Source: a virus
Length of the DNA: 47,805 nt
Strand: one strand, 5' to 3'
Virus record (IMG/VR): IMGVR_UViG_3300009537_000024
Location: 1 to 47,805 of that record
Shown here: positions 3,326 to 45,986 of the stretch, piece by piece
Layout: each line of letters starts with the position of its first letter
Position numbering within the stretch: the first letter of the stretch is position 1
Notes under the pieces: model-generated
Seen by the model: the letters and a program-made list of their open reading frames with translations, nothing else
What the model was told of the DNA's origin: nothing
Database searches by the model: none
Program-made: the position numbers and the translations under genes

Positions 3326-6300
3326 TGCCCGATCCACTCGAAGCCCTCGTCGACCAGGCGCTGGGCTCCTCGCCCGAAGATCCCCTGTCGCGGCTCGTAG
3401 ACAACGCTGTTGGCGCCCCCGATCCGTCGTCGCTCAACGGCTACGACGAGCGCGTGTCGGGCACGATCGCCACGGACAAGGCCCTTGGCGATTCCCAGGC
3501 CACCGTGCCCGAGCTGCCTGAGGACATGCTGTCCCGCACAGCGTCCGAGGTCTATCCTCCCTCAGTGGGCGAAGCCGTGGTCGAGGCTGGCAAGCGTGGG
3601 CTGACGCTGAAGTACGCGGGCGGACTCTTCGAGGACATCGAGAGCGCCGCGCAACTGTCCGCCCAGGCTTTCATCGCGAGCACGGGCGGCAGCAAGCGCA
3701 ACGTGGACGACCCTACGTACCGTAAACTTATTGCCGCGTATCGGTGGATTCACACCAACACACAGAGCGAAATGGCGGACGAGGAGAAGACGTCCGTGCT
3801 CCAGGCCACGGGTGGTCAGGCTTTCGACATCGCCCTGGACCGCGGTATGGGCCGACTCACGGACCTGGACCAGCGCCTGGAGGACCCGAACCTTGGCGTG
3901 CTGGAGCGCAACCGTGCCGAAGCCGAGCGCGAGCAGCTGCACGTAGCCCTCGCACAGATCCAGGGCTGGCGTAGTCGGCTCGCGGAGGGGGACGCGCCGA
4001 CGATGAGCAAGGTGCGCACATTTCTCAAGAGTGCTATTCGGCAGGACGACCAGAGTGGTGAGCAGGACAGCCTGTCCGTGCGCCAACTGAATGACGTGCT
4101 GCTGCCGAAGACGGTGAGCGCCGTGCCCGACCTTAACTTGGGCGCGCGCTACCAGGCCGGACGAGAGTCCGCGCCTTTGCAGCACGCCATGCACACGCTC
4201 TTGTCTGGAGCGGACAACCCGCGCGGCGCTGAACAAGTGCTGCGCCTCTCCGCACAGTCCGCCCTCCAGCGCGTACGGGCCGCCCGCTTCGGTGTCACGC
4301 CCGACGACGTGGACGCCATGGGCGACAGCGCGCTGTTGTTCAAGACGTACCCGCAGCTCGCGCAGAACGCGATCGTGCAGGCAACGTCCCAGCTCCCGTC
4401 CGACGGCATCTCTGCAGACGCAGTCGAGGCGGGGCGCACTGCGACGCTGCCGTCCGGTGTCGTGCGGGACATCCTACGTAACGTAGACACCGCGGCTGAG
4501 AAGCTGGCACGCTACGATGCCGGCCAGGCGCCGGTGGAAATGGACCCTATCGCGCGCGCAGTGGATGAGGCCGGCGGTGCAGCGGCGCGCGGCATCGGCG
4601 AGATGTTCATGGGTGCGGCCAACCTCAGCGACCGCGCCATGAAGGCGATCACCGCCACGCGCCGCAACACGACGCAGGCGTACGGCTGGTCGCTGAAGCC
4701 CTGGGAGCTGGCGCCCATCGACCGCGAGCGCGTCCGCCAAGGTATCGCGAACGGCGAGGTCGACGTCGGCGCAGCCATGCGCGTTGCCGGCATGGAGGAC
4801 GATTGGGTTGCGGGCTGGGTGCTCACCGCCGAACACCTGGGCACAAAACTTACATCAGCAGTCGATCAGTTGACTACTGTCGGTGGCCCCGACCTGCCGA
4901 GCCTCAGCAGCAGCATCGCCCAAGAGCGCGTCGGGAAGTTCCTGAAAGGTCTCGAAGAGTCCAAAGAGCCGGACACGCTCGGCATCGGCAAGATCGTCGC
5001 CGAGAAGCTGCAGGGCCTACCTGAGAGCGCCCTGACGCCCGACACTATGCGCACCGTACTCAACGCGGTGCAGACAGAACTCATTCACCGCAACCCGGTG
5101 GTCGAAGAGATCCGGGACCTGGACAAGCAGTACTTCGCCGACGCTGCGCGCGCCCAGAAGGGTGATTCCTTTCTGGAGCAGCTGTACACGACCACGAAGG
5201 CTGCCCTGTTCCGCGCTGTGGTCACGGACACCGCCGAGATCATGACGCTGCTTGCTGACAGCCCATCGCGTGCGCCGGCATTGGGCGCAATCGCGGTCGG
5301 GGCGAACGCAATCGGTGGGCGCGTCTTCGGAAACATCCATGACGGGCTGAACCGTGGCCTCGCCTCGATCACGGAGCGTGGACGTCTCCGCCGCGCCCTC
5401 AAGGACCTGAGCTACTTTGACTCGCAGGCCGCCGAGAACGTGGCGCGCGCGTTCCAGAACCACCCGGTGGCCGGGCTCACCGACACGAAGAACCGGGCGA
5501 TCTCGACCGTGGCGCAGAAGCTCGCGGACGAGGCGAAGGCTGAGTTGCGCGATGTCGGCCGCATCACGACGCAGGACCACACCATGTTTCAGCGCGGGCG
5601 CCGAAAGAAGGTGCGCGAGCTTGACCGGTTGCTGGCCGCGAACAAGGTCGACCCGGCCGACGCCCTCGACATTATGGGCATGCCGGAAGAACTCATACGG
5701 GACATACAGTCCCCTGTCCGCGCGCAGTTCCTCAACGACGTGGTCACGGGAGTGCTCGACAAGGTGGGTCTGCGCGGGCACTCCCTGTCCCCCTTCGCGG
5801 CAGCGCGCACACGGTCGAACGTCTTCAAGCAGATCAACGACTTGATCGACCAGGGCGCGGACCTCTCCCAGGTCCAAGGCATCATGGCGCCGCTTGTCGG
5901 CACCCAGGACGGATACCGCAACTGGTTCCGCGCCATGAAGGACAAGGCGATTGGCCCGCGCATCGACTGGGAGAAGACGAGCCTCACCGCCGCGGCTGCG
6001 CAGTGGGCCAAGGAGGCAGCGCCCGCGGTCACCGCACTGCGCGACTACAACGTGCTCATCCAGGGCCGGCAGCACGACCTGCTCGACCTCGCCATGCGCC
6101 GGCTCGACAACGACGAGGCTGTGCTACGCCAGTTCCCGAACCTGGAGCCGGGCATCGACAAGCAATTGCGACGCATCGAGCGCAACCGGGAACTGCTGGG
6201 CACCGCACTGGAGGAGGTGCAGTCGCGCGGCTGGCGCGAGTCGGTGCGCCTGTCCGGCCACGACTCGCTGCTCGACACTCTCACGTTCACGGATCTACGC

Positions 6301-9300
6301 ACCTGGTGGGAGGCGTCCCAAGGCGCGGGTGCGCGGCACCAGCTCTGGACGTCGCACAAGGGCGCGCGCAACGCGGACGGCACACTCATTCCGCCGCGCG
6401 AGTTCTTCGAGCAGATGGACGAGATCGCACGCATTGAGGAGTCCGCCTTGAGCGGAGCCCTCACGGGCAAGGAGCGGAAGAAGGCGCTCCGGTTTGTTGG
6501 TCGACAGAAGCGCGAGTTTGTGCGCACGCTGTTCGACCGCGAGATTCCCGAGAAGTTTCTGCAGTCGGGCGACGAGTTCGTGTTTGATCCGCAGTGGATC
6601 AGCAAGGTTGAGGGGCGGCGTGCGGATCTGGAGAGTAGGATCGCACGCGCGGAAGACCCCGGCGAGGCGGCAGCCCTGGCCGAGCGGCGCGACCGGCTGC
6701 CGAAGGTCGTCAAGCAAGATCTGCCCACCCAGATCGCACGCGCCCAGGAGTTGGCACAGACCATCGCCGCGCAAGACTTCGACGCCGTAGCGGGCAAGAT
6801 GAACGGCTGGGACTTCACCCGCCCGGCCGACGTCGCGGAGCACATGCGCCAACTGGCGATCTCTTCGCGCGGCAAGCTCGTGGCGCAAATGCTCAAGGCG
6901 CAGCACTTCTTCGAGGAGTACCACAGGCTGACGCCACAGTTGCGCGACGCCTTCGATGACATGCTTGGCAAGGCGGGGCGCGGCGAGTACCGCAGCTGGC
7001 AAGACTTCTTCGAGGAGCACCCGGACCTGCGCACCCGCTTTGGCGAGGGCGGCGAGGCCGAGAGCATGGGGCGCGCGTTCGAGAACATGGAGGGCGTGCG
7101 CATGGATCTGGTGACCGAGCTGCACCGGCTCGGTCGGATCTCGGACGAGGCGTATGAGAACTACGCGCGCCCGTATTCGCCGCAGTTCTACTCCGCCGAA
7201 GAGTTCCCTCGCCTGCTCGGCCGGGCAGCTCGTAGGCGGGTAGAGAAGCAGATCAAGAAGGGGCGCTCCGACTTCGACCCGTCTGTGCAAGAGTCCGACG
7301 CCTTCGAGCTGCAGCGCGACATCTACCAGACACGCCTACTGATCCAGCAGCGCGGCAGCGAGTGGATCGACAAGCGCTTCGACAGCCGCATGGAGGCGCA
7401 CCGCTACGTCGCCGACCACTACGGCCTGCGCACGAAGTCTGCCAAGCCGCTCGAAGGTACGTCTGGCATCGAGGCCCGCACCGGGCTCGGTGACCGCTAC
7501 GTTGTGCTCGATCCGCTCGGCGAAGACCACGCCGCGCAGCTGGGCCTCATAGGCCGAGGTGCCGCGCTGGGCGCGCGGACGATCGACCTGATGCGCATGG
7601 TCCCGATCTGGCAGGTACACAAGGCGTTCGATCGCCCCGGCTTCATGATGACGCAGGCCGAGTGGAACCTTGCCCAGCGCACTCCGGCCGGGAAGCGCAT
7701 GACCCGCGACTTCATCGAGATCCCCAAGAAGAGCAGCCTCTTCGAGCCGATCGCCGGCAAGTACGTGCACAAGGACGTGGCGCTGAACATCCAGCGCGCG
7801 CTACACATGCAGAAGATGGCCGACGACATGGCACGCGAGTTCACCGAGGCCGCGATCACGGACGTGCCCGGCTGGGCCGGCGGGCTCTCGAAGGTGGCGT
7901 CGTGGCTGCAGGACCGCACGGTCTCGATCCGGCAACTCATCGGCACGAACGGGATCGAGCGCTTCGGGCGCACGCACATGATGAACCGCGTGACGGACTC
8001 GCAGCTCTTCGCCCCTGCCGCCGCCGGGCGCAGCTACCTGACCAGCCCGAAGGGCAAGCAGGCGCAGCGCTGGGCGCGGCAGTTCCTCCTTGGGCGCGAG
8101 GGCGGCAAGGGCGGCATCATGGAGAGCTTCAACGCCACGAAGAGTCTCGCGCGCGAACTCGACAAGCTGAAGCAGACGGACCCGCAGCTTGGGCAGTGGG
8201 TCGAGGACGCGGCGCGCGGTGGCATGCTCGGTGACAGCATGCTCGGCACCAACCCCGTGTCCGCCGACGCCTACAAGTCCATGACGGAAGCCTTCTTTGG
8301 CGAGAGCGCCGAGGGCATTATCCGGGGCACCTCAGCGGAGGCAAAGGGGGCGCCAGCCCGACGGGCCGCGCGCTTGGCCCGCGTCGAGAGCGACCTTGAC
8401 GGTCTGGCCGAGCAGATCAAAGGCTTGACGGCCAGCGACCCGAACTTCACGAAGCTGAACAATCTCGCGTCCCGCCTCGAAGGCGAGAAGTACGCGCTGC
8501 AGGCCGCGATCGACGCGGAGCCCACCAAGTTTCACCGGCGCCTCGACGAAGCTGTGGGCTGGCTCCTCGGTACGCGCAACAAGCGCGGCACGTTCGACGA
8601 GTACCGCAACTACACGCACTCGTTGTATCAGCGCGAGGGCAACATTCACCGACTGGGTGCGTACCTCCACATAAGGCAGCTGGGCCACAGCCACGAGTAC
8701 GCGATCAGCCGCGTGCGCACCTTCATGCAGGACTACTCGAACATCCGCGGCGCGTTCAGCTTGCTGCGCGACATCCCGGTGGCGAACCCGATCCTGTCGT
8801 TCCCCTTGGAGATGATCCGCATCCAGCTCAACCAATTGCGGCAGTCGCCGGGAATGCTGCTGGGGTGGCTCACTGCCGCACCGATGCTGTCCGCGCCCGC
8901 GCTGATGATGGATGGCATCGACCCGATCGAGTACTACAAGGCGCGCGGACAGGGCAGCACATGGGACGCAGTCGTGCACGCCACGAGCACGCTCGTCACG
9001 CCCTCGGTCACAGGCGACGGAGTGGACGAGTGGCAGGCGCCCCAGCTCGGCGCGCTGCAGTTGCTGCGCAAGTCAACGGGCCTGGAGGGCGCACTCACGA
9101 GACGCACCGAAGAAGTGCCGGGGCCGGCGGGCCTGCTCGGCGGAGCGGCCCTGCGCGTTGCCGGGCAGTTCACCGGCAACCCGGCCATGGACGCGCTGTA
9201 CACCATGACCACCGACCAGGACGCTGTCACGCACGAGAAGATCGGCGGTGGCTTCTTCGGCGCGGTGGGGCACTCGGTCATGGAACTGTCGCGCCTGATT

Positions 9301-10284
9301 GTGCCCGGCTCCAGCCCCTGGTTCGGCTCGGTCGGGCGCACGAACGTGGACGGCCTGCGCTACCCGCCGCGTCCAGGTACGGGCCGGCTCGACCCGCCGA
9401 TCGGGCGCCTGCTGTACTCGCTCACGGGCATTCGACACACCGGCAGTGCGCTGGACTACGCGGACATTGTCTCGGGCGAGCCGCTGGCGTACTCGACCAA
9501 GCTCGCGCTCGACGCCATGAACATCGCCTCGCTCGACGACATGCCGGTGCCCGAGACCTTGGCGCGCGGGCGATCGATCTCGGACGAGGACCTGTCCGTG
9601 TGGATGTTCTACGCGAATCGAAAGAACGGGCTGTACCCGGAAGGCTTCGGTCGCGGCCAGTTCGAGCACCTGGAGGAGCGCATGAGCCTCGCCGGCTACA
9701 TGGAGGCGCACGGCGAAAAAACGGGCGACTCGGCGCTGGTCGGCTGGGCACAACGCGAGAGGGCCAAGACCGTCAAGCAGCTCGAAAAGGAGCTGAACGC
9801 GCACCCGCAGTTCCGGGTCGTGGGCGTGTCCGAGGAGGTCCTGCGACGCGAGGGCGAGAAGCTGCTCAAGGGCGAGGCGGACCGCGCCAACTTCGGCGAG
9901 ACCTTTGCCGAGGCCGACCTGATCCACCAAGTCACGTCGCTGCTGACCATGAGCGCGGCCGGGATCAAGGACGACGTCATGGTACACCTGGCCCGCAAGG
10001 CCGCAATGCAGACGGGCAACGACCCGGAGGGCTTCCGCGGGTGGTCCGACCCGGCCGTCATGGAGGTCGCGCTGCAGCACATCCGCCAGCACTTCGAGAC
10101 GAAGGACCCGCGAATGACCGGCGACCGCGCACTGCGGATCTTGCAGTACGCGCTCACCGAACAGCTCCCTGGCGCCTACGAGGACAGGTCGCGCAAGATC
10201 CTACAGGACCAGGAAAGCATCGAGCGGTTCAAACGCTACCGCGAACTCAAGCACGGCGAGCAGGAGGGCGAATTTGACGACTGA
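3325..10284 (+). CDS. Giant internal virion / ejection protein (2319 aa)
   Basis: Uninterrupted 6.96-kb ORF, last gene of the virion arm, in the gp16-like position. I saw no polymerase, HExxH or lysozyme motif. Confidence 0.7.
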   Translation: MPDPLEALVDQALGSSPEDPLSRLVDNAVGAPDPSSLNGYDERVSGTIATDKALGDSQATVPELPEDMLSRTASEVYPPSVGEAVVEAGKRGLTLKYAGGLFEDIESAAQLSAQAFIASTGGSKRNVDDPTYRKLIAAYRWIHTNTQSEMADEEKTSVLQATGGQAFDIALDRGMGRLTDLDQRLEDPNLGVLERNRAEAEREQLHVALAQIQGWRSRLAEGDAPTMSKVRTFLKSAIRQDDQSGEQDSLSVRQLNDVLLPKTVSAVPDLNLGARYQAGRESAPLQHAMHTLLSGADNPRGAEQVLRLSAQSALQRVRAARFGVTPDDVDAMGDSALLFKTYPQLAQNAIVQATSQLPSDGISADAVEAGRTATLPSGVVRDILRNVDTAAEKLARYDAGQAPVEMDPIARAVDEAGGAAARGIGEMFMGAANLSDRAMKAITATRRNTTQAYGWSLKPWELAPIDRERVRQGIANGEVDVGAAMRVAGMEDDWVAGWVLTAEHLGTKLTSAVDQLTTVGGPDLPSLSSSIAQERVGKFLKGLEESKEPDTLGIGKIVAEKLQGLPESALTPDTMRTVLNAVQTELIHRNPVVEEIRDLDKQYFADAARAQKGDSFLEQLYTTTKAALFRAVVTDTAEIMTLLADSPSRAPALGAIAVGANAIGGRVFGNIHDGLNRGLASITERGRLRRALKDLSYFDSQAAENVARAFQNHPVAGLTDTKNRAISTVAQKLADEAKAELRDVGRITTQDHTMFQRGRRKKVRELDRLLAANKVDPADALDIMGMPEELIRDIQSPVRAQFLNDVVTGVLDKVGLRGHSLSPFAAARTRSNVFKQINDLIDQGADLSQVQGIMAPLVGTQDGYRNWFRAMKDKAIGPRIDWEKTSLTAAAAQWAKEAAPAVTALRDYNVLIQGRQHDLLDLAMRRLDNDEAVLRQFPNLEPGIDKQLRRIERNRELLGTALEEVQSRGWRESVRLSGHDSLLDTLTFTDLRTWWEASQGAGARHQLWTSHKGARNADGTLIPPREFFEQMDEIARIEESALSGALTGKERKKALRFVGRQKREFVRTLFDREIPEKFLQSGDEFVFDPQWISKVEGRRADLESRIARAEDPGEAAALAERRDRLPKVVKQDLPTQIARAQELAQTIAAQDFDAVAGKMNGWDFTRPADVAEHMRQLAISSRGKLVAQMLKAQHFFEEYHRLTPQLRDAFDDMLGKAGRGEYRSWQDFFEEHPDLRTRFGEGGEAESMGRAFENMEGVRMDLVTELHRLGRISDEAYENYARPYSPQFYSAEEFPRLLGRAARRRVEKQIKKGRSDFDPSVQESDAFELQRDIYQTRLLIQQRGSEWIDKRFDSRMEAHRYVADHYGLRTKSAKPLEGTSGIEARTGLGDRYVVLDPLGEDHAAQLGLIGRGAALGARTIDLMRMVPIWQVHKAFDRPGFMMTQAEWNLAQRTPAGKRMTRDFIEIPKKSSLFEPIAGKYVHKDVALNIQRALHMQKMADDMAREFTEAAITDVPGWAGGLSKVASWLQDRTVSIRQLIGTNGIERFGRTHMMNRVTDSQLFAPAAAGRSYLTSPKGKQAQRWARQFLLGREGGKGGIMESFNATKSLARELDKLKQTDPQLGQWVEDAARGGMLGDSMLGTNPVSADAYKSMTEAFFGESAEGIIRGTSAEAKGAPARRAARLARVESDLDGLAEQIKGLTASDPNFTKLNNLASRLEGEKYALQAAIDAEPTKFHRRLDEAVGWLLGTRNKRGTFDEYRNYTHSLYQREGNIHRLGAYLHIRQLGHSHEYAISRVRTFMQDYSNIRGAFSLLRDIPVANPILSFPLEMIRIQLNQLRQSPGMLLGWLTAAPMLSAPALMMDGIDPIEYYKARGQGSTWDAVVHATSTLVTPSVTGDGVDEWQAPQLGALQLLRKSTGLEGALTRRTEEVPGPAGLLGGAALRVAGQFTGNPAMDALYTMTTDQDAVTHEKIGGGFFGAVGHSVMELSRLIVPGSSPWFGSVGRTNVDGLRYPPRPGTGRLDPPIGRLLYSLTGIRHTGSALDYADIVSGEPLAYSTKLALDAMNIASLDDMPVPETLARGRSISDEDLSVWMFYANRKNGLYPEGFGRGQFEHLEERMSLAGYMEAHGEKTGDSALVGWAQRERAKTVKQLEKELNAHPQFRVVGVSEEVLRREGEKLLKGEADRANFGETFAEADLIHQVTSLLTMSAAGIKDDVMVHLARKAAMQTGNDPEGFRGWSDPAVMEVALQHIRQHFETKDPRMTGDRALRILQYALTEQLPGAYEDRSRKILQDQESIERFKRYRELKHGEQEGEFDD

Positions 10285-23178: not shown

Positions 23179-23408
23179 GTGTTCACTCCTGCAATGAGGC
23201 GGACAAAGGCAGGCATGAGCACAAAGCCGGTCAGCATTGCCGTAGCTATAGCCCATACCGGAGGAAGCATCCAGATTCCTCCGTCAGTTTTCTTGTGGAA
23301 CAGTGAACATACACCGACCACCACCACCGCCTGCAGCACCCACAGCAACCAAACCACGATCTGCGCCAGTCCCACGAGGCGGGTCGTGTTGTCGAAGAAC
23401 TCTATCAT
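23175..23408 (-). CDS. Membrane protein (77 aa)
   Basis: LVGLAQIVVWLLWVLQAVVVVGVCSLF and PPVWAIATAMLTGFVLMPAFV; ATGA coupling. Confidence 0.6.
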   Translation of the reverse strand: MIEFFDNTTRLVGLAQIVVWLLWVLQAVVVVGVCSLFHKKTDGGIWMLPPVWAIATAMLTGFVLMPAFVRLIAGVNT

Positions 23409-24868
23409 CTCGAAGCCTCCTTCAGCTTCCCGTCCACCACCCGGAGCCCGAGCGCCGTGCCCCCTTCGAGGGTGTCCACGGGCGCGTTGGCGGGCAGGAG
23501 GTCGACGTTGACAGGGCGGCGGGGGAATGCCGCGCGTTCTCGTTTCAGCAATTGCAAGGCAAGGGTACCGATTGTAGCACGGTGAGCCGAATCTGTCAAG
23601 GGCGGGCGCTTCCCGAACACTTCTAAGTATGCACCCGCAGCACGCTTGGCGAAAACGGTACACCTGTCCACCGTGGGTAGGGTGTGCTTACGCCCGCGCT
23701 TCATGGCCCAGTAGCACTCAGCCACCAGCTCGTCTCGATGATCCAGCGCGTAGTCCTTTGCGAAGTGCGGCGGCGCACCGTCCGCCCACCGGGACGTGTC
23801 GCCCCACACCTGCACCCTCCATGCCCGAGAGATCAGATCCTCGTGCAGCGTCGCGCGCCCGAACACGAACGTGAGGATCGCCGACCGCGCACGAAAGTTC
23901 GTACTCGCGCGATCGTACCGCAGGCGCTCCGCGGCACCGCGCTGGGTTAGGATCGAAGCAAGCCACGGGTTGGACCAGTCCACCACACCGTCCAGGTTGT
24001 CCATAACTGCGACAAGATGTCCGGCCCCGTAATGACTCGCCATCTGGTCCGGCGACGACGTGCGGGACGGCGTGATTGCCGGCGTCCTGTACCCGTGTAG
24101 CAGGTTTGCCACGGCCTCCGCCGCCTCACTCTTCCCCATTCCCTGCATCCAGCTGTCGATCGTCAGGAGGGGCACAGAGTGCGTCAGATACGACACGTCG
24201 AAGCACCCGAGCAGGAACATGTGCAGGCGGGCGTGCGAGATCTCGTCGAGCCAGAACTCGGAGAACAGCTGTTTGAGTCGTGGATAGTTTCGTCCACACT
24301 CAGCGGGCGGTGCAGGCATTTCGTACACGGGATCGGTAGGCACATCACCCACCAGCGGCCACCGCAGCCGCGCGCCCAGCTCCGGGATCTCGTCCTCGTG
24401 GATCAGGAGCCCGCTGTAGTTGTCCGTGGCGCACAGCGGCAGCAGGTGCAGCAGCCGTTCGCCCTGGGGGTTCGTGGCGAGGTCGGCCACCAGCTCCGCG
24501 AGTTCGTACCGGCTCAGGCGCTCGGCGTCCAGGCTCGCGCTGTTGCGCGCACACGTGAGCGGCACTTGTACGTATTGCACCCCGAAAGCGATGTGGCTCG
24601 TGAGCAGTGCGCGCGTCTGGCTCTCGGTCGCGGGCTGCTCGATGCGCGCGCCAAAGCGAAAGCAGGGCGAGCCGCCGGAGCGGAGCAGGACCCCCTGCTT
24701 GAGCAGCATCTCCCGCAGCGCCACGATGAAGGCAGGGTTGCGGCTCTGGAACTCGGTGAGCGGGCGCCCCGGTCCTGGTGCGCGCACTTGCGTGACCAGG
24801 AGGAAGTCGGGGCGATCCGCGACCGTGTACAGGTGGTAGCCTCGCGTTTGGTGCAGGTGCTCAAGCAC
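23405..24868 (-). CDS. P-loop NTPase, putative replicative (SF3/D5-like) helicase-primase
   Basis: Walker A-like WMQGMGKSEAA and Walker B-like HLVAVMDNLDG in the C-terminal half; 487 aa, upstream of the polymerase region. The N-terminal domain was not identified. Confidence 0.55.
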   Translation of the reverse strand: MLEHLHQTRGYHLYTVADRPDFLLVTQVRAPGPGRPLTEFQSRNPAFIVALREMLLKQGVLLRSGGSPCFRFGARIEQPATESQTRALLTSHIAFGVQYVQVPLTCARNSASLDAERLSRYELAELVADLATNPQGERLLHLLPLCATDNYSGLLIHEDEIPELGARLRWPLVGDVPTDPVYEMPAPPAECGRNYPRLKQLFSEFWLDEISHARLHMFLLGCFDVSYLTHSVPLLTIDSWMQGMGKSEAAEAVANLLHGYRTPAITPSRTSSPDQMASHYGAGHLVAVMDNLDGVVDWSNPWLASILTQRGAAERLRYDRASTNFRARSAILTFVFGRATLHEDLISRAWRVQVWGDTSRWADGAPPHFAKDYALDHRDELVAECYWAMKRGRKHTLPTVDRCTVFAKRAAGAYLEVFGKRPPLTDSAHRATIGTLALQLLKRERAAFPRRPVNVDLLPANAPVDTLEGGTALGLRVVDGKLKEASR

Positions 24869-25959: not shown

Positions 25960-26069
25960 TGCTCGATCCTCGGCATTTTGTATGCGATCGGCCGTCAATC
26001 CTACCGCCCATCCCGCCGCGCGCCAAGAAAAATCCGCCAAGTCTTTCGACCGAGCGGAGATAGGACTTC

Positions 26070-26172
26070 CACTGCACATACGTACGTTCCCGCTCTGTAC
26101 AATACCTATAGACAATTACCTAATTTTCCTTAGGTATTCTTGAGAGAGGGAACGCACATATGTGCAATGAAT
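26070..26172. promoter_or_regulatory. AT-rich quasi-palindromic element A (inverted copy of element B); candidate promoter/operator
   Basis: 80/103 ungapped identity to the reverse complement of 30372..30474, with a perfect 27-bp core at 26099..26125. Flanked by palindromes ctgcacatacgtac and gcacatatgtgc. On the plus strand: TAGACA(26109)-16 nt-TAGGTA(26131), then purine-rich SD and ATG 26160. Confidence 0.5.
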
Positions 26173-26866: not shown

Positions 26867-27279
26867 TCGTCGTTCTCCTTATCAATCTCCACCCCGAGCC
26901 GTTCGGCCAGCGCGGGCGTGAGTTCTTCGAGTGCTTCGTGGTAGCCAGGGAATACAATTCCCGTGCCGCTGGCGTTGGACTGGTAGTAGAACCCATCCGT
27001 GAGTTCCAGGTAATCCCCGGAACCGTCGAGCTTCCTCACCGCGGCGTCGAACTCGGCTCGCGTGTCGAAACCGTACGCTTCGTGGACTTCGTCTTCCGGA
27101 ACCGGGCGCATTTCGTCGTACACTGTTTCGAGGGCTTCCTCGAAAGACTGCGCGCGTACGATCCACGTAGGGGCTTCGTAGTTCTGGTAGAGCCAGAGTG
27201 AACCGAAGCCGTTGTCGTATACGTTGACGGCGCTACCATCCACACGGGCGCCCGTTAGGCGTTCATCGTCGCGGATCAT
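26863..27279 (-). CDS. Acidic hypothetical protein (138 aa)
   Basis: Preceded by ggagaccacgcc-ATG, identical to the junction at 27617. MIRDDERLTG... Confidence 0.6.
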   Translation of the reverse strand: MIRDDERLTGARVDGSAVNVYDNGFGSLWLYQNYEAPTWIVRAQSFEEALETVYDEMRPVPEDEVHEAYGFDTRAEFDAAVRKLDGSGDYLELTDGFYYQSNASGTGIVFPGYHEALEELTPALAERLGVEIDKENDE

Positions 27280-27617
27280 GGCGTGGTCTCCTCGATGGCT
27301 TGGTCGATTGCGCGACCTATCAAGACTTTCGCGAATTCGGCCCCGGGCCAGGGCTTGTGAAAATCGCGGATGTGTTGGGCTCGTATGGCTTTCAACTGAC
27401 TGTGTGCGGCGGCCCGTCCTATCTTGCGGGCTTCGGCGCTGTCGGGAAGCGGTGCGCCATCGAGCGCGCGCAGTGTGTGCATCGCGCACCATATGCGGCG
27501 CCCGTCGGCGAGTTCGAGCAGCGTGTCGCATCCTTTGTTCCACGGTTCCCATTTTACTACGGTACCGTGATCGCCATAGTACGGATCACTTACGGCACGT
27601 CCGATGGGGATTGTCAT
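27276..27617 (-). CDS. Hypothetical protein (113 aa)
   Basis: ggagaccacgcc-ATG junction; lies downstream of hammerhead copy a. Confidence 0.6.
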   Translation of the reverse strand: MTIPIGRAVSDPYYGDHGTVVKWEPWNKGCDTLLELADGRRIWCAMHTLRALDGAPLPDSAEARKIGRAAAHSQLKAIRAQHIRDFHKPWPGAEFAKVLIGRAIDQAIEETTP

Positions 27618-27645
27618 GGCGTGGTCTCCGTTGCAATGCAATGCT

Positions 27646-27707
27646 GGCATCATCAGGCGACCGGAGCATACCCGATCGCGACGCGACGCGCGGTCGCGTT
27701 TCGCCCC
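27646..27707 (-). ncRNA. Type II hammerhead ribozyme-like motif, copy a (variant core spacing)
   Basis: GGGGC-GAAA-CGCGAC(cgcgc)GUCGCGU-C|GCGAUCGG(guaugcu)CCGGUCGC-CUGAUGA-U-GCC. Core nucleotides are present with one extra U before G10.1 and a weak stem II. The 5' end overlaps the UAG stop at 27707-27709. Confidence 0.55.
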
Positions 27708-27925
27708 TATTCCACAATAGTCAGTCCCGCCGATGTCAGCGCCGCGGGGCGCCATAGTGACGCTATGCGCCCCCATGCGGGATCCTGCGATGCTTTTAGC
27801 GCCGCCAACGCAGCATCGGTACCATCGCGATAGTGAGCAGCGCGATGGACGATGTCGCTGGCAAGCGATTCGGGAGTCAAGTAGAATGTGGTGTTTTCTG
27901 TGGTAGCGACGACAACGAAACACAT
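27707..27925 (-). CDS. Hypothetical protein (72 aa)
   Basis: GAGGA+8 nt before ATG 27925 (M12 of ORF 27707..27958). Confidence 0.5.
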   Translation of the reverse strand: MCFVVVATTENTTFYLTPESLASDIVHRAAHYRDGTDAALAALKASQDPAWGRIASLWRPAALTSAGLTIVE

Positions 27926-27936
27926 GGCGCTAATCC

Positions 27937-28023
27937 TCACAAGACCATCGCGAGCCACACAAGGGCCGCGAAGTAACCGAGTCCGATCACGGCGAGTCCG
28001 AGTCCGCGTCCGTTGTGTCTCAT
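27937..28023 (-). CDS. Micro-ORF encoding a 28-aa hydrophobic peptide
   Basis: MRHNGRGLGLAVIGLGYFAALVWLAMVL; ATG overlaps the upstream stop (ATGA). Below the 60-aa ORF-track cutoff. Confidence 0.35.
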   Translation of the reverse strand: MRHNGRGLGLAVIGLGYFAALVWLAMVL

Positions 28024-28196
28024 CGTAGCTTTCTCAGAAGGCGCTGCACGCGATCACGTTCCGCTGTACACTGCTCACACACTACCACGGGACAGCCCGT
28101 GACCGTCCCCGTAGGCTTGTCGCAATCCTTGCATCGGGGCTCCGGCAAGGGTAGTTCTGCGTACCATGGGCATGCTTTGTGACTGTGGCGACTCAC
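28020..28196 (-). CDS. Zinc-ribbon-like small protein (58 aa, GTG start)
   Basis: VSRHSHKACPWYAELPLPEPRCKDCDKPTGTVTGCPVVVCEQC...; GTG 28196 overlaps the stop of the preceding micro-ORF (GTGA). Confidence 0.4.
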   Translation of the reverse strand: MSRHSHKACPWYAELPLPEPRCKDCDKPTGTVTGCPVVVCEQCTAERDRVQRLLRKLR

Positions 28197-28333
28197 GAAA
28201 ACTCCCCTCTCACGAAAGCCGCCAATGTCGCGTCCGGACCATGCGCCGTCCAGTATCGCATCGCACGGCCCAAGGCGAACGAGCGGAGACCGAGAACGTT
28301 GCGGGCGAAGGCGGAGAAGGTGTATGCTCTCAT
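28193..28333 (-). CDS. Small ORF (46 aa)
   Basis: GAGGA+4 nt before ATG 28333. MRAYTFSAFARNVLGLRSFALGRAMRYWTAHGPDATLAAFVRGEFS; high GC3. Confidence 0.35.
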   Translation of the reverse strand: MRAYTFSAFARNVLGLRSFALGRAMRYWTAHGPDATLAAFVRGEFS

Positions 28334-28342
28334 GGGTTCCTC

Positions 28343-28534
28343 TCAGGGTAGGGCGTTCGGTGTGACCCGTTTGGCTCGGGAGTCGTCGCCGAAACACTTG
28401 TCGGGATGCGGAAGGAACGTCACGTTGTATCGCGTTTTGCCGTACTCTCGGACCTTGCGGATGCCTTGATCGCGATCGTACTTTCGTGCACGTTCGCGAG
28501 CGAAAGCGTAGGCTTCTTCGTAGTCATCGAACAT
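28343..28534 (-). CDS. Hypothetical protein (63 aa)
   Basis: MFDDYEEAYAFARERARKYDRDQG...; internal ATG of ORF 28343..28582. Confidence 0.5.
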   Translation of the reverse strand: MFDDYEEAYAFARERARKYDRDQGIRKVREYGKTRYNVTFLPHPDKCFGDDSRAKRVTPNALP

Positions 28535-28536
28535 GC

Positions 28537-28620
28537 TCAGTCGCTCCAGACGTAGAACCGAAGATGTTCGGAAATCCACCACGCGAGGCCGATCAGGCCG
28601 ACGATGACTTGCGGATTCAC
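28537..28620 (-). CDS. Micro-ORF encoding a 27-aa hydrophobic peptide (GTG start)
   Basis: VNPQVIVGLIGLAWWISEHLRFYVWSD; GTG overlaps the upstream stop (GTGA). Confidence 0.3.
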   Translation of the reverse strand: MNPQVIVGLIGLAWWISEHLRFYVWSD

Positions 28621-28928
28621 GCGTCGTCTCCGTAGGTTTCGACCAGGTACTCTTCGGCCTCTTCGCGCGTCTCGAATGCCGTCCAGTCCGTGCAGTCCAG
28701 GTATCCGGGAGCGGAGAGACGACAAAGAACGCCGTGCGGGTGGCGTGTCACGGTAGCGTCAAAATCGCCGCCGAAACTACGATACTCGTAGTCGCTATAC
28801 CCTTCGTCGGGGTAGTGCGAGTTGCCGTGGTTGGCGTCGATCTCGATCCACGGCCCCTCGTAGAACTCCGGCTCCATGAATCCCTCGGCCATCGTGGCAA
28901 GCGCTTGCTCGCGTTCGTGCTCGGTCAT
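28617..28928 (-). CDS. Highly acidic small protein (103 aa)
   Basis: ggagacacgcca-ATG junction. MTEHEREQALATMAEGFMEPEFYEG...EEAEEYLVETYGDDA; lies downstream of hammerhead copy b. Confidence 0.6.
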   Translation of the reverse strand: MTEHEREQALATMAEGFMEPEFYEGPWIEIDANHGNSHYPDEGYSDYEYRSFGGDFDATVTRHPHGVLCRLSAPGYLDCTDWTAFETREEAEEYLVETYGDDA

Positions 28929-28946
28929 TGGCGTGTCTCCATTGCG

Positions 28947-29020
28947 GCGTGCTGGCTCGTCAGCGGATCGGAGCATACCCGATCCGGACGCGCCCCGACA
29001 AGGGACGCGTTTCGCCACGC
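28947..29020 (-). ncRNA. Type II hammerhead ribozyme (canonical core), copy b
   Basis: GCGUGGC-GAAA-CGCGUCC(cuuguc)GGGGCGCGU-C|CGGAUCGG(guaugcu)CCGAUCCG-CUGACGA-GCCA(gca)CGC. C3-A9, G12-A14, A15.1/U16.1 and the GUC triplet are all present, and three stems pair. Confidence 0.75.
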
Positions 29021-29024
29021 CATG

Positions 29025-29264
29025 TTACTCGGCGGAAATTTGGGCGTCAATCTCGGGGTAGTCGAGGCGCATCGTCGTGAGCTTGTACAGGTCGCGCCAT
29101 TGCCGGGTGCTGTCCGGGAGCGTCGCGCCTCGCAATCGCGGCGGGCACAGCGAAAAATGCACGCGGACGGTTGCGTTGACGATGCCGGGGACTGCGGCAA
29201 CGGTGCCGACGAAGCCTTGGCCGAAGTGAATGTCGGTCTCGGGACGGTACGTTATGCGGATCAT
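29025..29264 (-). CDS. Hypothetical protein (79 aa)
   Basis: MIRITYRPETDIHFG...; ATGA coupling to the upstream gene. Confidence 0.55.
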   Translation of the reverse strand: MIRITYRPETDIHFGQGFVGTVAAVPGIVNATVRVHFSLCPPRLRGATLPDSTRQWRDLYKLTTMRLDYPEIDAQISAE

Positions 29265-29416
29265 ACGTACCTCCCACAAGCGATTGCGTAGGCGTCCGCG
29301 TGGTTCAGCAACCCGCACCCGCGCAGTACAAGCTTGATCTCGCGGCCGTGCAATTCGACGGACAGCACCGCGCGCAACCGTGCAACGGTCCATGTGTCTC
29401 GTGTCATTCGTATCAT
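29261..29416 (-). CDS. Hypothetical protein (51 aa)
   Basis: gggagaacacgcc-ATG junction of the cassette family; MIRMTRDTWTVARLRAVL... Confidence 0.5.
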   Translation of the reverse strand: MIRMTRDTWTVARLRAVLSVELHGREIKLVLRGCGLLNHADAYAIACGRYV

Positions 29417-29998
29417 GGCGTGTTCTCCCGTCGCGACATTGCGACGCCTGGTCCCTTGCCAGAAACGTGCCGGACGCGGCAAGGGCCGTAAGCGGCTTGG
29501 CTCGGCACGTACCGACAATTATTGGCGCCGCTTTGTGTCACGGCAAGCACAAAATGTCGGTGATCGGCCCTTGCCCCGTGATCGGTATCGGTGCCGGTAT
29601 CGGCCTTGTGCCGAGCCCCGTGCTTCCCGTAGGGTGACACTGGGCCGGTTCGGATACGGTCCGTAGGACGATTACGGCACAGGCACCCGTACCACGGCCC
29701 CAGAGCATGCCATTCGGTACAGGGAGCATGGCGTAGGCGTTAGGAGAACGCGCATTGTGTATGAAAATCCAACACAATCGGCCCTCCCTCAGCCTCCGGC
29801 TTGACCACGGCCCATTGCCATAACTCCGTGCCCACGCGCAGGTTACTATCCGGGCACGCGCGCGGTTCTTATCTCTGAGGCAAGGGGCGTGCCAGGCCAG
29901 AAAAAAGGGGGTGGGGAGGGGGGAAGTGCGGGGAAAGAACTATACATCTGTGGCTGGAGACTCCCGCCCCCGATCGACGCATTTTGTCGGTGCCCGGC
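29417..29998 (-). other. 580-bp non-coding island (structured leader, possible ncRNA, origin or internal promoter/terminator region)
   Basis: No ORF with coding-like composition. Multiple hairpins (cccttgcc/ggcaaggg, attgtgt/acacaat, cgtgccc/gggcacg, gggccg/cggccc three-way junction). Direct repeats (cggtatcgg x2). G-run tract at 29907-29933. Confidence 0.5.
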
Positions 29999-30163
29999 TC
30001 ACAGCCATGCCTGCCACCCCAAATGAACGAACGCCGCGAACGCAATCCCCACCTCGCCCTTCTGCCAGATCCACGCCGTGCCGATCCCCACGACGAGCAT
30101 GCTGGCGAAGTAGGCCCCGTACTTGATCCGCTCCAGAACGCGGTCGGCTCGTGTGTGGGTCAT
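29999..30163 (-). CDS. Small membrane protein (54 aa)
   Basis: MTHTRADRVLERIKYGAYFASMLVVGIGTAWIW...AFAAFVHLGWQAWL; ggagacaccccg-ATG junction; ATGA coupling. Confidence 0.55.
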   Translation of the reverse strand: MTHTRADRVLERIKYGAYFASMLVVGIGTAWIWQKGEVGIAFAAFVHLGWQAWL

Positions 30164-30384
30164 CGGGGTGTCTCCTGGTCGTTGACATTTTGTCGGTGGT
30201 CGGCTACTGCGCAGGCACTTGGCGAAGCCCGGTGCAGGCGCCAACCGCACACCCCCAGCAAGGCCCCTCCCTGCCCCGTAGCGGCCACGAAACGCTCAGC
30301 GGGTACCACCACAGGTTCGTGATTCGCGAACGCCGAACAGAGGCGCCCAGAGGCCTTGAGCGGGAAGGGCGTTTCACTGCACAT
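30160..30384 (-). CDS. Hypothetical protein (74 aa), first gene downstream of element B
   Basis: AGGAG+7 nt before ATG 30384, which lies inside the flanking palindrome. Stop overlaps the next ATG (ATGA). GC3 about 69 percent. Confidence 0.45.
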   Translation of the reverse strand: MCSETPFPLKASGRLCSAFANHEPVVVPAERFVAATGQGGALLGVCGWRLHRASPSACAVADHRQNVNDQETPR

Positions 30385-30477
30385 ATGTACACTCCTTCTT
30401 CTGATAGAACCTAAGGACAATTAGGTAATTGTCTATAGGTATTGTTCAGGGGGGTAATGCACATACGTGCAATGAAT
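30375..30477. promoter_or_regulatory. AT-rich quasi-palindromic element B (inverted copy of element A); candidate early/middle promoter-operator
   Basis: Perfect 27-bp core 30419..30445 = reverse complement of 26099..26125. Inner palindrome ACAATTA-GG-TAATTGT. On the minus strand: TAGACA(30435)-16 nt-TAGGTT(30413), then AGGAG and ATG 30384. Confidence 0.5.
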
Positions 30478-30504: not shown

Positions 30505-30834
30505 TTATACATTTTGTACCCGGTCGACCATTGCCTTGTACAGGCCCAGTACCCGGCCTTGGGCCACCCCATGGGCCTGCCCCGTGGCCTCCGTGCCCAA
30601 GTACGCCTCCACGGCCTGCACCATATCCACCGTGTCCTCGCTCTGCCCAGCCATGTACGTGAGCGCCCGCGGCACGTCCTTCTCCGCGAACACGAGTTTT
30701 CGCCGTCGCACGGACCCGCACCCGACGTAGCGCTGCGCTGCCCGCGCCACGGCTTCGCTCCGGCACGTCACCGCCGCGCCCAGGCGGCCGTCGCGCACGA
30801 ACAGTTCACAGAAGGCCCAGGGTGTGTCAATCAT
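30505..30834 (-). CDS. Hypothetical protein (109 aa), paralog of 31074..31421
   Basis: MIDTPWAFCELF..AAVTCRSEAVARAAQRYVGCGSVRRRKL aligns with MIDSKLAHFSLV..AVVRFNDPARAKAAQKELGFGHVRAAQL. Confidence 0.65.
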   Translation of the reverse strand: MIDTPWAFCELFVRDGRLGAAVTCRSEAVARAAQRYVGCGSVRRRKLVFAEKDVPRALTYMAGQSEDTVDMVQAVEAYLGTEATGQAHGVAQGRVLGLYKAMVDRVQNV

Positions 30835-43394: not shown

Positions 43395-45986
43395 ATGTCC
43401 GCCACACTCAGTGTCAATATCATTACCAAGGATCAGCCTAAGGCTACTGCACGTGCCGTAGCTTCGCTACAGAGCCTCGTACGCGCGGGAGACGAGGTAA
43501 TCGTTGTGGATACCGGGTCCTCGCCCACGAACCTCAAGGACCTGAAACGCCGCCTCCCCCTTGCTCTACCGGACAGTGTGGATCTCTGTGTACTGGAGCA
43601 TCCTGAGCTGTCCGTGTCTTTACAGCCATATATCGACGAGTGGCTGCCGGAGCGTTCGGGCGAGATTGAGACCCACGAGCAGTACAAGAACCTGCGCGGT
43701 ATCCTCGACTTCGCCGCCGCACGGAACGTGGCCCTCGATGCCTCGACGCGCGATGTCGTATTCTGGATCGACAGCGACGATGTCCTTGTTGAGAAGGACC
43801 CCGGCCAACTGCGTAGCGTGATCGATCGCGCGCTGGGCGACCCTGAGCCCACGTACAGCGCGCTGTTCCTGACGTACGAGTACGCCTTCACAGAGGACGG
43901 CACCCCCTCGACCATCCTGAAGCGCGAGCGCGCAGTACGTCGCGGCGAGTTCCGGTGGAAGGGACGCTGCCACGAGACTCTGATTCCAGAGGACCATTGT
44001 AAACTACCGGTTGGGTTTGGTGCAGACCTGTATTCCGTGATCCGCCACACCGAGGCTCGAAAAACCGGCGCCATCTGCGATATCCGCAACTACCTCGCTC
44101 TGCGCAAGGAGGTTGAGGAGACCAGGGAAAAGTGGCTCGACCCACGCACGCAGATGTACATCGGTAATGCTGCGCGCGGCCTGCAACGGTTCAAGGAGGC
44201 CCTCGGCTACTACAAGGACTTCTTCTACCGCTCCGGCTCGCCAGACGACCGCTACGCCACGTGCCACTACATCTGTGACATTCTCATGCGCGAGGAGATC
44301 CAGCGCCCGGTTGAGGCGGCAAAGTGGTATCGCGAAGCTATCGCGATCTTCCCGAAGGACCCGCGCGCGTACTTCGGTCTGTCGCGCTGCTATGCCGCGC
44401 AGATGCGGTGGTCGGAGTGCATTGACTGGTTCGAGATTGCCCGAGGATTCGAGCCGCCGGAGCACACCCTCCACACGTACGATCCAAACTCGGTATTCTA
44501 TACGCCGTTCATCATCGCGGCCAAGGCGTACTTGGAGCTGGAAGACCCCGATAAAGCTATCGAATGCATTCATGCCGCAAAGCGCTTCCGTCCGAACGCG
44601 CCCGACATCGACACTGTGGTGCAGACCGTGGAGCAGCTCGCCGCCGGCCAGCGTCTCACTAACATCTTGATCGAGGTGGGCCGGCATGTCAAGGGCGGCA
44701 GCCACCGGGCGCGCGAAATGCTGGGCAAAGTGCTGCCGTACCTCTACGCCGTTCCTGAGGCTCTGGAGAAAGTCGGCATTGGCTTGCCCCAAGAGGACCC
44801 ACGGAACGACGCGCCCGAGCTGGCGATCTTCTGCGGCGAGACTGCCGAGCAGTGGGGGCCGGCGTCTGCCAAGACAGGGATCGGGGGCAGTGAAAAGATG
44901 ATCTTGCTCCTCGCCCCGCTCCTCCAGCGGCTCGGCTGGAACGTGACAGTCTACGCCTCGGTGCCGTTCAAGCAACGCGGCGTGTACCCGGACGGCGTGC
45001 GGTGGGCGCATTGGGCCGAGTTCGACCGCACGAAGCCGCTGGATGTGCTCATCGGCTGGCGCTTCCACGGCCACATGCTGATTCCTGTCTCGGCTAATCT
45101 GCGCGTGCTGTGGCTCCACGACGTCCAGCACCCGGACCAGTACACTACCGAAATCCTGGAGTGTACGGACTATGTAATCGCGGAAAGCGAGTACCACGTG
45201 CAGCCATTGCGGGGGGTGGTGCCGGATGAAAAGCTGGTGGTGCTGCGTAACGCCGTGGCGCCGCCCGACCGGGACATGCTGGAGGGCAAGGACCCAAAGC
45301 GTGTCATCTTCCTGCAGAGTCCCGATCGCGGGCTCGTGACCGCGCTCAAGATGGTAGCCGCCGCGCAGAAGGTGGACCCCGAGATTAAGGCGACGGTGCT
45401 CTACGGCTTCAGCCCCTATGCCCGCAAGTGCCGCGCTCAGCGCGATCACCAGCACATACCGGATCTCGGAAGAGACGGAAGTCTGGACGAGTACGAGCTG
45501 GAGGTCTGCCGGCTGATCGACGAGACGAACGCAGACCAGGGCAACCGTGTGGGGTTTGAACAGGTGTGGGAGCAACTCCAGCATGCCGGCATTTGGCTGT
45601 ACCCCACCCGCTTCCCCGAGATCTCGTGCATGTCAGCAATGGAGGCTCAAGTTGCGGGTTGTGTGTGCATTACTTCTGGCTATGCTGCTCTGTCTGAGAC
45701 AGTGCTCCCCGAAGCGCAGGCCCTGGGAGAAGATCTCGGTCCCGTGGAGGATTCCGAGGATTATATCCAACGAGGCGCGTGTGCGATTCTGGCTGCGACG
45801 AAAGTCCCCGCCCATGATCCTCGTCGGGCAGCTCAATCGGATGCCGCGCGTGCTGCTTACGACGTGAAGTTGCTCGCGGAAGACTGGACTGAGTTGTTTC
45901 GTGCGGGTGAGTCCAAGAGTGGCGGCTTAGAGGACTCCGAAAGCGGCAGCGTGCGGCCGGCCCGCGTTTCACAGGAGGCAGGATGA
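43395..45986 (+). CDS. Multidomain glycosyltransferase: GT2 (GT-A) - TPR-like repeats - GT-B (GT4/GT41-like)
   Basis: N-terminus: SVNIITKD..VIVVDTGS..ARNVAL..VFWIDSDDVL (GT2, DxD). Middle: TPR-like helices (ALGYYKDF, AAKWYREAIAIFP, AYFGLSRCY). C-terminus: GIGGSEKM ... EISCMSAMEAQVAGCVCITS (GT-B E-x7-E-like region). Confidence 0.8.
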   Translation: MSATLSVNIITKDQPKATARAVASLQSLVRAGDEVIVVDTGSSPTNLKDLKRRLPLALPDSVDLCVLEHPELSVSLQPYIDEWLPERSGEIETHEQYKNLRGILDFAAARNVALDASTRDVVFWIDSDDVLVEKDPGQLRSVIDRALGDPEPTYSALFLTYEYAFTEDGTPSTILKRERAVRRGEFRWKGRCHETLIPEDHCKLPVGFGADLYSVIRHTEARKTGAICDIRNYLALRKEVEETREKWLDPRTQMYIGNAARGLQRFKEALGYYKDFFYRSGSPDDRYATCHYICDILMREEIQRPVEAAKWYREAIAIFPKDPRAYFGLSRCYAAQMRWSECIDWFEIARGFEPPEHTLHTYDPNSVFYTPFIIAAKAYLELEDPDKAIECIHAAKRFRPNAPDIDTVVQTVEQLAAGQRLTNILIEVGRHVKGGSHRAREMLGKVLPYLYAVPEALEKVGIGLPQEDPRNDAPELAIFCGETAEQWGPASAKTGIGGSEKMILLLAPLLQRLGWNVTVYASVPFKQRGVYPDGVRWAHWAEFDRTKPLDVLIGWRFHGHMLIPVSANLRVLWLHDVQHPDQYTTEILECTDYVIAESEYHVQPLRGVVPDEKLVVLRNAVAPPDRDMLEGKDPKRVIFLQSPDRGLVTALKMVAAAQKVDPEIKATVLYGFSPYARKCRAQRDHQHIPDLGRDGSLDEYELEVCRLIDETNADQGNRVGFEQVWEQLQHAGIWLYPTRFPEISCMSAMEAQVAGCVCITSGYAALSETVLPEAQALGEDLGPVEDSEDYIQRGACAILAATKVPAHDPRRAAQSDAARAAYDVKLLAEDWTELFRAGESKSGGLEDSESGSVRPARVSQEAG

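Follow-up and report, generated by a model that had tools for sequence, protein, structure and literature searches.

Two type II hammerhead motifs placed between genes of an uncultured high-GC phage delimit a 1.3-kb segment of seven small open reading frames

Two sites in the virus record IMGVR_UViG_3300009537_000024 (IMG/VR, positions 1 to 47,805; all 47,805 nt of this DNA are hereafter called the window) have the sequence and pairing pattern of a hammerhead ribozyme, and we consider it probable that both are functional type II hammerheads, sense-oriented in an early-gene transcript read from the minus strand of an uncultured, high-GC phage. The two sites, here called copy a and copy b, have the complete motif with its core, show covarying stems, are conserved in a relative and are placed alike between neighbouring genes. 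Their predicted cuts have the same sense and are 1307 nt apart (27680/27679 and 28987/28986). We infer that the RNA is cleaved there in vivo and that this would affect the fate of the mRNA.

On the minus strand from 27705 to 27641, copy a reads GGC-GAA-ACGCGAC(cgcgc)GUCGCGU-C/GCGAUCGG(guaugcu)CCGGUCGC-CUGAUGA-U-GCC-AGCAU, where lower case marks the loops and the slash marks the predicted cut, and copy b, from 29017 to 28950, reads UGGC-GAA-ACGCGUCCC(uuguc)GGGGCGCGU-C/CGGAUCGG(guaugcu)CCGAUCCG-CUGACGA-GCCA-GCA. Both follow the type II topology in the order stem II 5' strand, GAAA, hairpin III, GUC, hairpin I, CUGAnGA and stem II 3' strand, and both have the type II core, GAA-A...U-C with an A15.1-U16.1 pair, an H17 that is not G and the GUC triplet. 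The core C3-U4-G5-A6-N7-G8-A9 is present in both, with one additional U after A9 in copy a. The elements common to the two copies are GAAA, GUC, the loop GUAUGCU, CUGAnGA and GCCAGCA. The two basal pairs of stem I are swapped between the copies in a compensatory manner (G-C/C-G versus C-G/G-C), and the sixth pair of stem III differs as well (A-U versus U.G). Stem III of copy b has 9 bp, its core CUGACGA lies at 28963-28957, and the whole element can be closed by an outer helix of GGCG (29021-29018) with CGCC (28949-28946). The pseudoknot between loop I and the tail comprises 5 bp in copy a (AUGCU/AGCAU) and 4 bp in copy b (UGCU/AGCA).

An earlier note on this DNA, made from its letters alone, had described copy a as the second of two same-sense hammerheads with covarying stems, and this description agreed well with what we observed: all the elements that it listed were found on the minus strand at their positions, including the extra U at 27649 and the UAG stop codon (27709-27707) adjoining stem II, the swap of the basal stem I pairs was confirmed, and the pair of motifs indeed delimits a seven-ORF (open reading frame) segment of about 1.3 kb in which two ORFs encode hydrophobic micro-peptides. 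The AUU/AAU extension that it proposed for stem II of copy a was abandoned because relatives give it no support. It had also regarded the short stem II, the tail complementary to the loop and the extra U as departures from the canonical form. In type II hammerheads, a stem II of 1-3 bp is usual and active, and the pseudoknot between loop I and the tail is standard, is functionally required and has at least about 4 bp in the majority of members (PMC3088659), so that the first two features are normal, and the inserted nucleotide recurs in relatives and has a viroid precedent, as described below.

The match to the hammerhead pattern is far beyond chance. A type II descriptor detected exactly two sites in the window, copies a and b, versus none in 300 dinucleotide-preserving shuffles; it demanded GAAA, a stem III with 4 bp or more and a closing A-U pair, UH, a stem I with 5 bp or more, CUGANGA and, with or without an inserted base in front, a stem II with 2 bp or more. 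In a local Rfam search evaluated by E-value, RF02276 (Hammerhead_II) was the only family with a credible and significant match in the region, at copy a with 31.8 bits (E = 6.5e-4) and at copy b with 31.0 bits (E = 1.1e-3). At the gathering thresholds, which for this family is 37 bits, Rfam gave no match in the window. As the lineage falls below the cut-off, routine annotation would miss it. In the cmscan alignment the nucleotides following CUGAnGA, including the first residue of stem II, are counted as insertions, and an offset of the stem II annotation in the RF02276 model may explain part of the shortfall. The minimum free energy (MFE) fold of copy b is the three-way junction (z = -3.1), and copy a scored 81.7 bits with covariance model R2. 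With a covariance model built from both copies no third copy was detected in the window, and no other Rfam ribozyme was found there.

To evaluate covariation we counted pairs on a covariance-model alignment of 12 distinct sequences, as MAFFT alignments of the ribozymes put the stems in the wrong place. Standard pairs occupied 98% of the cells, and 13 of the 17 pairs vary on both sides. The covariation score was 0.753 against 0.173 in shuffles and was reached by 0/500 of them, a large margin for an alignment that was fitted to a model and therefore favours structure. When the partner columns were slid, pairing fell to 28-44%. The covarying pairs are distributed over stem I (8/8) and stem III (4/6), and the middle pair of stem II, G-C in the lineage of the window, is C-G in the others, so that three helices backed by covariation surround the core, as in type II. 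The unpaired core (CUGAnGA, GAA and the GUC triplet) is invariant over the 12 diverged sequences. The pseudoknot was paired in only 73% of cases in the column-based count, which results from gap placement.

To find relatives, collections of viral, metagenome and genome contigs were scanned with DNA patterns, and model searches and Rfam followed. The strict DNA pattern had 0 matches in viral contigs. Metagenomic contigs with the same loop I and tail passed the Rfam gathering score, with 45.3 (L005/L019), 45.4 (L015), 46.8 (L020/L021) and 37.1 bits (L010), and L005, L010, L015 and L021 each contain, at a distance of 0.6-1.8 kb and on the same strand, another hammerhead that has diverged further. 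These second copies scored 72.1 (L005), 67.8 (L015) and 56.3 bits (L010); the one in L021 (1806-1876) was found only with our own models. They often have another loop/tail pair, GUGGUG with GCCGC or GCCA, and this swap is covariation that backs the pseudoknot. Same-sense pairs 0.2-1.8 kb apart were seen in every ribozyme locus long enough to show the neighbourhood, recurring in L005, L010, L015, L021, L024 and L038. The genes around the ribozymes of L005, L010, L015, L021 and L024 are not homologous to those of the window. Other matches to a looser pattern (L006-L009, L011-L014, L016-L018, L022, L023 and L025-L029) were discarded as chance or coding matches without GAAA, stem III or stem I pairing.

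The pair in L024 consists of a type II hammerhead (1192-1259, minus strand) and, about 200 nt away, an apparent type III circular permutation (1395-1462, minus strand), with the type II one upstream. Stem I and the GUAUGCU loop are shared by both, and in the permuted copy AGCA lies in a closed loop II (GGC-AGCAAC-GCC-GAAA-UAC), so that the interaction would there be a loop-loop kiss.

Homologues of the gene 3' of copy b, with 64-70% identity, were found in JGI sample 3300053780 (L037 and L038), and there the hammerhead is present. The copy b orthologues (L037 653-726, L038 1-74) have a G-C pair inserted in stem III and the tail AGCAUG. In L038 there is also a copy a orthologue (1283-1354), in which stem I is identical, an A-U pair of stem III is replaced by G-C, N7 is G instead of U and the inserted base is A instead of U. 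Between the two L038 copies the distance is 1282 nt, compared with 1307 nt in the window. The earlier note had held that a lack of conserved pairing in homologous phages would speak against the hammerheads; L038, with a protein identity of about 70%, keeps both copies with compensatory changes. Its suggestion of looking at homologous junctions succeeded with the gene 3' of copy b and failed with the gene 3' of copy a (see below). The copy a orthologue directly follows the homologue of the 28-aa micro-ORF and precedes a different downstream gene, which indicates that L038 lacks the 72-aa gene of the window, and the ribozyme forms an island of 91-95% identity between flanks that are not homologous in L038 and the window. 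Since the pair is kept in the relative while the flanking genes on both sides are replaced, the selected unit at these junctions appears to be the ribozyme and not its neighbours. Downstream of its copy b orthologue, L038 has tandem paralogues (100-444 and 459-770) that are 64% and 69% identical to the window protein following copy b. A 38%-identity homologue of the g28928 protein on contig L039 has no hammerhead.

This island of identity between unrelated flanks is also what would be expected of a recombination junction, and the same operon contains long hairpins that are possible processing sites; the elements might accordingly be imagined as non-catalytic, serving as protein-binding, RNase or pause sites or as DNA recombination hotspots at module boundaries. 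We regard this as the least probable of the explanations considered here, because an unpaired core that stays invariant over 12 sequences while the stems covary freely is the signature of a catalytic fold and would not be left by generic hairpins or by sites in DNA; recombination at these junctions could moreover be a by-product of functional hammerheads, not an alternative to them.

Several observations weigh against two functional hammerheads, apart from the model-fitted alignment mentioned above. Both copies (31-32 bits) and also their orthologues (31.3-33.0 bits) lie under the Rfam cut-off of 37. The plain MFE structure of copy a is a non-hammerhead fold with a z-score of 0.07, and copy a combines the extra U after A9 with a stem II of only 3 bp. 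In its L038 orthologue the pseudoknot is down to 3 bp. Finally, homologues of the gene 3' of copy a (50-57% identity, four contexts, L030-L036) have no upstream hammerhead, so that this gene can do without the ribozyme; the genes upstream of these homologues are tightly packed, and a weak match in L036 was rejected as it spans coding sequence and lacks stem I pairing. A scan of viral contigs with the gene 3' of copy a gave no match, nor did a scan of viral contigs for close relatives with the anchor protein 23405-24868; four homologues of the latter are on contigs without a hammerhead that are too short to reach the ribozyme region.

Some of these points would fit a decaying copy a, that is, a catalytically dead duplicate crippled by its extra U and short stem II, with copy b as the sole cutter. 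The inserted nucleotide adjoins the core, between A9 and G10.1, and is a bulge since it is unable to pair with C11.1. De la Pena and Flores (2001, J Biol Chem 276:34586) reportedly found that a U at this position raises the cleavage rate. An extra A (A10) at the same position of the CChMVd (+) viroid hammerhead has a moderate effect on the rate, slowing it (PMC1636495). The base is U in copy a, A in the L038 orthologue and U in both L010 ribozymes, one of which reaches 56 bits in Rfam, and a stem II as short as that of copy a is, as noted, ordinary in active type II members. The L038 orthologue keeps all the core nucleotides, a compensatory A-U to G-C change and an inserted nucleotide, a pattern of selection and not of decay. 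The hammerhead fold of copy a is at most 2 kcal/mol above the MFE, with the pseudoknot (about -3.8 kcal/mol) left uncounted. We therefore think it rather improbable that copy a is dead, and return to the reading in which both copies cut. The lineage is in any case slightly atypical, being sub-threshold in Rfam and having its own GUAUGCU/AGCA pseudoknot and an inserted base in one paralogue.

The placement of the two motifs is informative. Each ribozyme starts 1-3 nt past a stop codon (for the UAA at 29027-29025 the distance was measured to the outer GGCG helix, 29021) and ends 12-15 nt 5' of GGAG and about 23 nt 5' of the AUG of the next gene (27617 and 28928). The predicted leader after cleavage would be 62 nt for the gene 27617-27276 and 58 nt for gene 28928. 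The layout of stop codon, hammerhead and Shine-Dalgarno (SD) sequence with AUG was also seen in most relatives parsed. As in clustered phage hammerheads, the window has two same-sense intergenic copies, 1307 nt apart on the coding strand, with small ORFs between them. Similarity between the surroundings of the two copies continues 3' of both hammerheads because of a recurrent start motif, GGAGAC-N6-ATG, found at four gene starts. The full start context, GGAGAC(C)ACGCC-ATG, occurs on the minus strand at 27272-27291, 27610-27629, 28612-28631 and 29409-29428.

A course of events consistent with this arrangement can be proposed. The hairpins of stems III and I would form during transcription, and once CUGAnGA-GCC-AGCA has been transcribed, a 3-bp stem II and a 4-5-bp pseudoknot (UGCU/AUGCU with the tail) would lock stems I and II side by side, whereupon the 2'-OH of C17 would attack the following phosphate. 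At copy a, 27680 is predicted to end up with a 2',3'-cyclic phosphate and 27679 with a 5'-OH, the chemistry being that of the hammerhead class. Each cut would fall past the stop codon of the gene on its 5' side and ahead of the ribosome-binding site of the gene that follows: the upstream product would retain its stop codon and have as its 3' end the stem III hairpin with a 2',3'-cyclic phosphate, and the downstream product would start with a 5'-OH and the stem I hairpin, its own SD and AUG remaining intact. As the products would be held together by only the 3 bp of stem II, they should be released quickly and re-ligation would be unlikely. A polycistronic mRNA would in this way be divided into units of one or a few genes, among them the 1.3-kb seven-ORF unit, and the stability and translation of each unit would be insulated from those of its neighbours. 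Clustered phage hammerheads around small genes, some of which cleave in vitro and in vivo, have been reported (PMC3088659; PMC6155905), and processing of polycistronic phage mRNA has been proposed for them (PMC3088659; PMC6765202; PMC6155905); by analogy, the most likely function here would be to split a long transcript into mRNAs that each carry one or a few genes. Hammerheads flanking small-gene blocks in phages are thus already published, the arrangement having been first described in 2011 in prophages.

The close packing raises the question of whether cleavage could be conditional and coupled to translation, its rate then reporting how heavily the upstream ORF is translated. With 0-8 nt between the stop codon and the stem II 5' strand, GGC-GAAA would lie under a ribosome that is terminating, and folding would be blocked. 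In most relatives parsed the stop codon abuts or overlaps the ribozyme, as UAGCC in L015 and L010 and as UGAGGAC in L021, and in L038 the SD of the next gene overlaps the pseudoknot tail. However, such packing may merely reflect the compactness of phage genomes, and a fast ribozyme could fold and cut ahead of the ribosome, so that we consider translation-coupled cleavage unlikely, if worth keeping in mind.

A further possibility concerns the excised segment, whose ends might come together as a chimeric hammerhead and be ligated, giving a circular seven-ORF mRNA that could be translated, or whose flanks might be joined with the cassette spliced out; in a milder variant, the hammerheads would be portable junction modules for the exchange of small-gene cassettes among phages. 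The stem II strands (GGC/GCC) are identical in both copies, as they are in L038 and L010, so that a chimeric core could pair, and reading of the sequence suggests that a 6-bp helix of UUGUGG with CCGCAA could extend the chimeric stem II. This helix is however at chance level, the ends, 1.3 kb apart, would be held by just 3 bp, and in the pairs of L005, L015 and L021 the stem II strands are not interchangeable, which means that compatibility is no conserved property of such pairs. Circular or spliced products of clustered phage hammerheads were sought and none were detected (Perreault et al. 2011, PMC3088659). In our view a circular or spliced form of the segment is accordingly very improbable, and the simple processing of a polycistronic transcript by two functional hammerheads remains the preferred explanation.

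The window (~48 kb, 63% G+C) looks like a phage genome or genome-sized contig encoding a terminase, a portal, a major head protein, an amidase and a family A DNA polymerase. Genes from ~10.2 kb to 32 kb are on the minus strand, which places both ribozymes in the sense strand of a block of early or unknown-function genes. Megablast and blastn searches of the region against GenBank phages gave no match, and as the DNA polymerase is at most 28% identical to those of known phages, no annotated relative could be used. The segment between the predicted cuts is tightly packed (Table 1), and an SD match was found for 6/7 of its ORFs, the 28023 micro-ORF being unlisted in that start scan. None of the seven segment ORFs has a Pfam match, and Pfam gave no match for ten neighbouring proteins. 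The g28928 family (~100 aa, no Pfam domain) has 50 metagenomic homologues besides the protein of the window, and the micro-ORFs of the segment have homologues in L037/L038.

Table 1 Features of the two hammerhead motifs and of the segment between their predicted cuts (window coordinates)
Feature	Position	Strand	Detail or basis
Hammerhead copy a, type II	27641..27705	minus	sequence, Rfam RF02276, descriptor, covariance model, orthologue in L038
Copy a stem II 5' strand	27705-27703	minus	GGC
Copy a G12 A13 A14	27702-27700	minus	
Copy a stem III	27699-27693, 27687-27681	minus	7 bp, ACGCGAC and GUCGCGU, loop CGCGC
Copy a C17	27680	minus	
Copy a predicted cleavage site	27680/27679	minus	3' of C17; GUC triplet and core register
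Copy a stem I	27679-27672, 27664-27657	minus	8 bp, GCGAUCGG and CCGGUCGC
Copy a loop I	27671-27665	minus	GUAUGCU
Copy a core	27656-27650	minus	CUGAUGA
Copy a extra U	27649	minus	after A9
Copy a stem II 3' strand	27648-27646	minus	GCC
Copy a tail	27645-27641	minus	AGCAU, complementary to loop I AUGCU
UAG stop of ORF 27925-27707	27707..27709	minus	1 nt before copy a stem II 5' strand
SD and AUG of gene 3' of copy a	27615..27629	minus	GGAG 27629-27626, AUG 27617-27615; gene 27617-27276, 113 aa
Hammerhead copy b, type II	28950..29017	minus	sequence, Rfam, MFE fold, descriptor, orthologues L037 653-726 and L038 1-74
Copy b predicted cleavage site	28986..28987	minus	3' of C17 (28987); activity putative
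UAA stop of ORF 29264-29025	29025..29027	minus	upstream of copy b
SD and AUG of gene 3' of copy b	28926..28940	minus	GGAG; AUG 28928-28926
RNA segment between predicted cuts	27680..28986	minus	1307 nt, seven tightly packed ORFs
ORF	28928-28617	minus	103 aa, g28928 family
ORF	28620-28537	minus	27 aa, hydrophobic
ORF	28534-28343	minus	63 aa
ORF	28333-28193	minus	46 aa
ORF	28196-28020	minus	58 aa, CxxC...CxxC
ORF	28023-27937	minus	28 aa, hydrophobic
ORF	27925-27707	minus	72 aa

Other features of the surrounding DNA were also observed. On the minus strand of 27600-30400 the third-codon-position GC is 0.55-0.75 compared with 0.8-0.9 in neighbouring genes, and this weak signal suggests that the hammerhead-bearing block of small genes has another origin or is under a lower expression constraint. 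Two related elements of ~105 nt (26068-26171 and 30373-30476, minus strand) bracket a 4.2-kb block containing both hammerheads. As minus-sense RNA they form hairpins that are very long and almost perfectly paired (-65.7 and -49 kcal/mol, z = -9.4 and -8.8), the plus sense being less stable. They have a 23-nt exact core in common, and near-palindromic boxes close to TGCACATATGTGCA (at most 1 mismatch) occur within the window only in them. The AUG of the ORF that follows (MCSGSP.../MCSETP...) lies in their 3' arm, and in the 30.4-kb element an AAGGAG SD stands before it. These hairpins may be RNase III-type processing sites, hairpins for translational control or operator/promoter regions. What looked like an inversion at the centre of the two 115-nt elements, and would have implied an invertible switch, is probably explained by the long imperfect hairpin that each of them forms. 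Beside the long hairpins, in a stretch where the coding signal is weak, there are five direct copies of a ~20-26 nt motif, CATTTTGTnnnnGGTCGGC on the plus strand (25974-25993, 29549-29574, 29979-30004, 30185-30210 and 30509-30534), and these repeats could be iterons or regulator-binding sites. Elsewhere in the window, a 2319-aa ORF at 3325-10284 (plus strand) has a strong coding signal, a third-codon-position GC of 0.86 and no PHROG match and is presumably a giant virion or tail protein, and an 863-aa protein with two glycosyltransferase-like regions is encoded among the late genes at 43395-45986 (plus strand).

This pair adds a natural case to the question of what self-cleaving ribozymes do in phages, and its layout of stop codon, ribozyme and ribosome-binding site offers a directly testable natural model of an 'insulator'. 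That the pair is conserved amid shuffled neighbour genes is neat and will not surprise specialists, and the current picture of hammerhead biology is unchanged by it.

Comparison with known systems places the two elements closest to their own class and to the phage clusters already described. Like members of RF02276 (PMC3088659), the window copies have capped stems I and III, an open stem II of 2-3 bp, the same core and a pseudoknot of loop I with a tail just after stem II, and they are phage-associated and intergenic; unlike them, the copies and their orthologues score 31-33 bits, below 37, have GUAUGCU/AGCA where the model consensus has an AGCC tail and, in copy a, contain one inserted nucleotide after A9. 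The prophage clusters of Agrobacterium tumefaciens, Azorhizobium caulinodans and Clostridium scindens (Perreault 2011, Fig. 3) resemble the window in having same-sense ribozymes 0.2-2 kb apart with small, non-conserved ORFs between, for which processing of a polycistronic mRNA was proposed, whereas those of the window are closely paralogous, share loop and tail and belong to an uncultured genome or contig of ~48 kb and not to an annotated prophage. The CChMVd (+) hammerhead with A10 likewise tolerates in its fold one nucleotide between A9 and G10.1 (De la Pena and Flores 2001, cited in PMC1636495); viroid and satellite ribozymes with such an extra residue are however type III, and those described here are type II and from phage, the inserted base being U in the window and in L010 and A in L038. 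RNA segments bounded by two same-sense hammerheads are found in viroids, satellites and retrozymes as well, but those ribozymes are type III or I and belong to tandem repeats of a non-coding replicon, whose ends are held by a long helix and joined into circles by a ligase (PMC4918200). The window segment, in contrast, is protein-coding, occurs once, lies inside the operon of a double-stranded DNA phage and would have its ends held by just the 3 bp of stem II. Finally, RiboJ, reportedly engineered by Lou and colleagues in 2012 from the type III sTRSV hammerhead and placed just 5' of a ribosome-binding site, is said to cut off the upstream RNA and to leave a hairpin at the new 5' end; the elements of the window are natural and type II, and their likeness to RiboJ would be one of working and not of membership.

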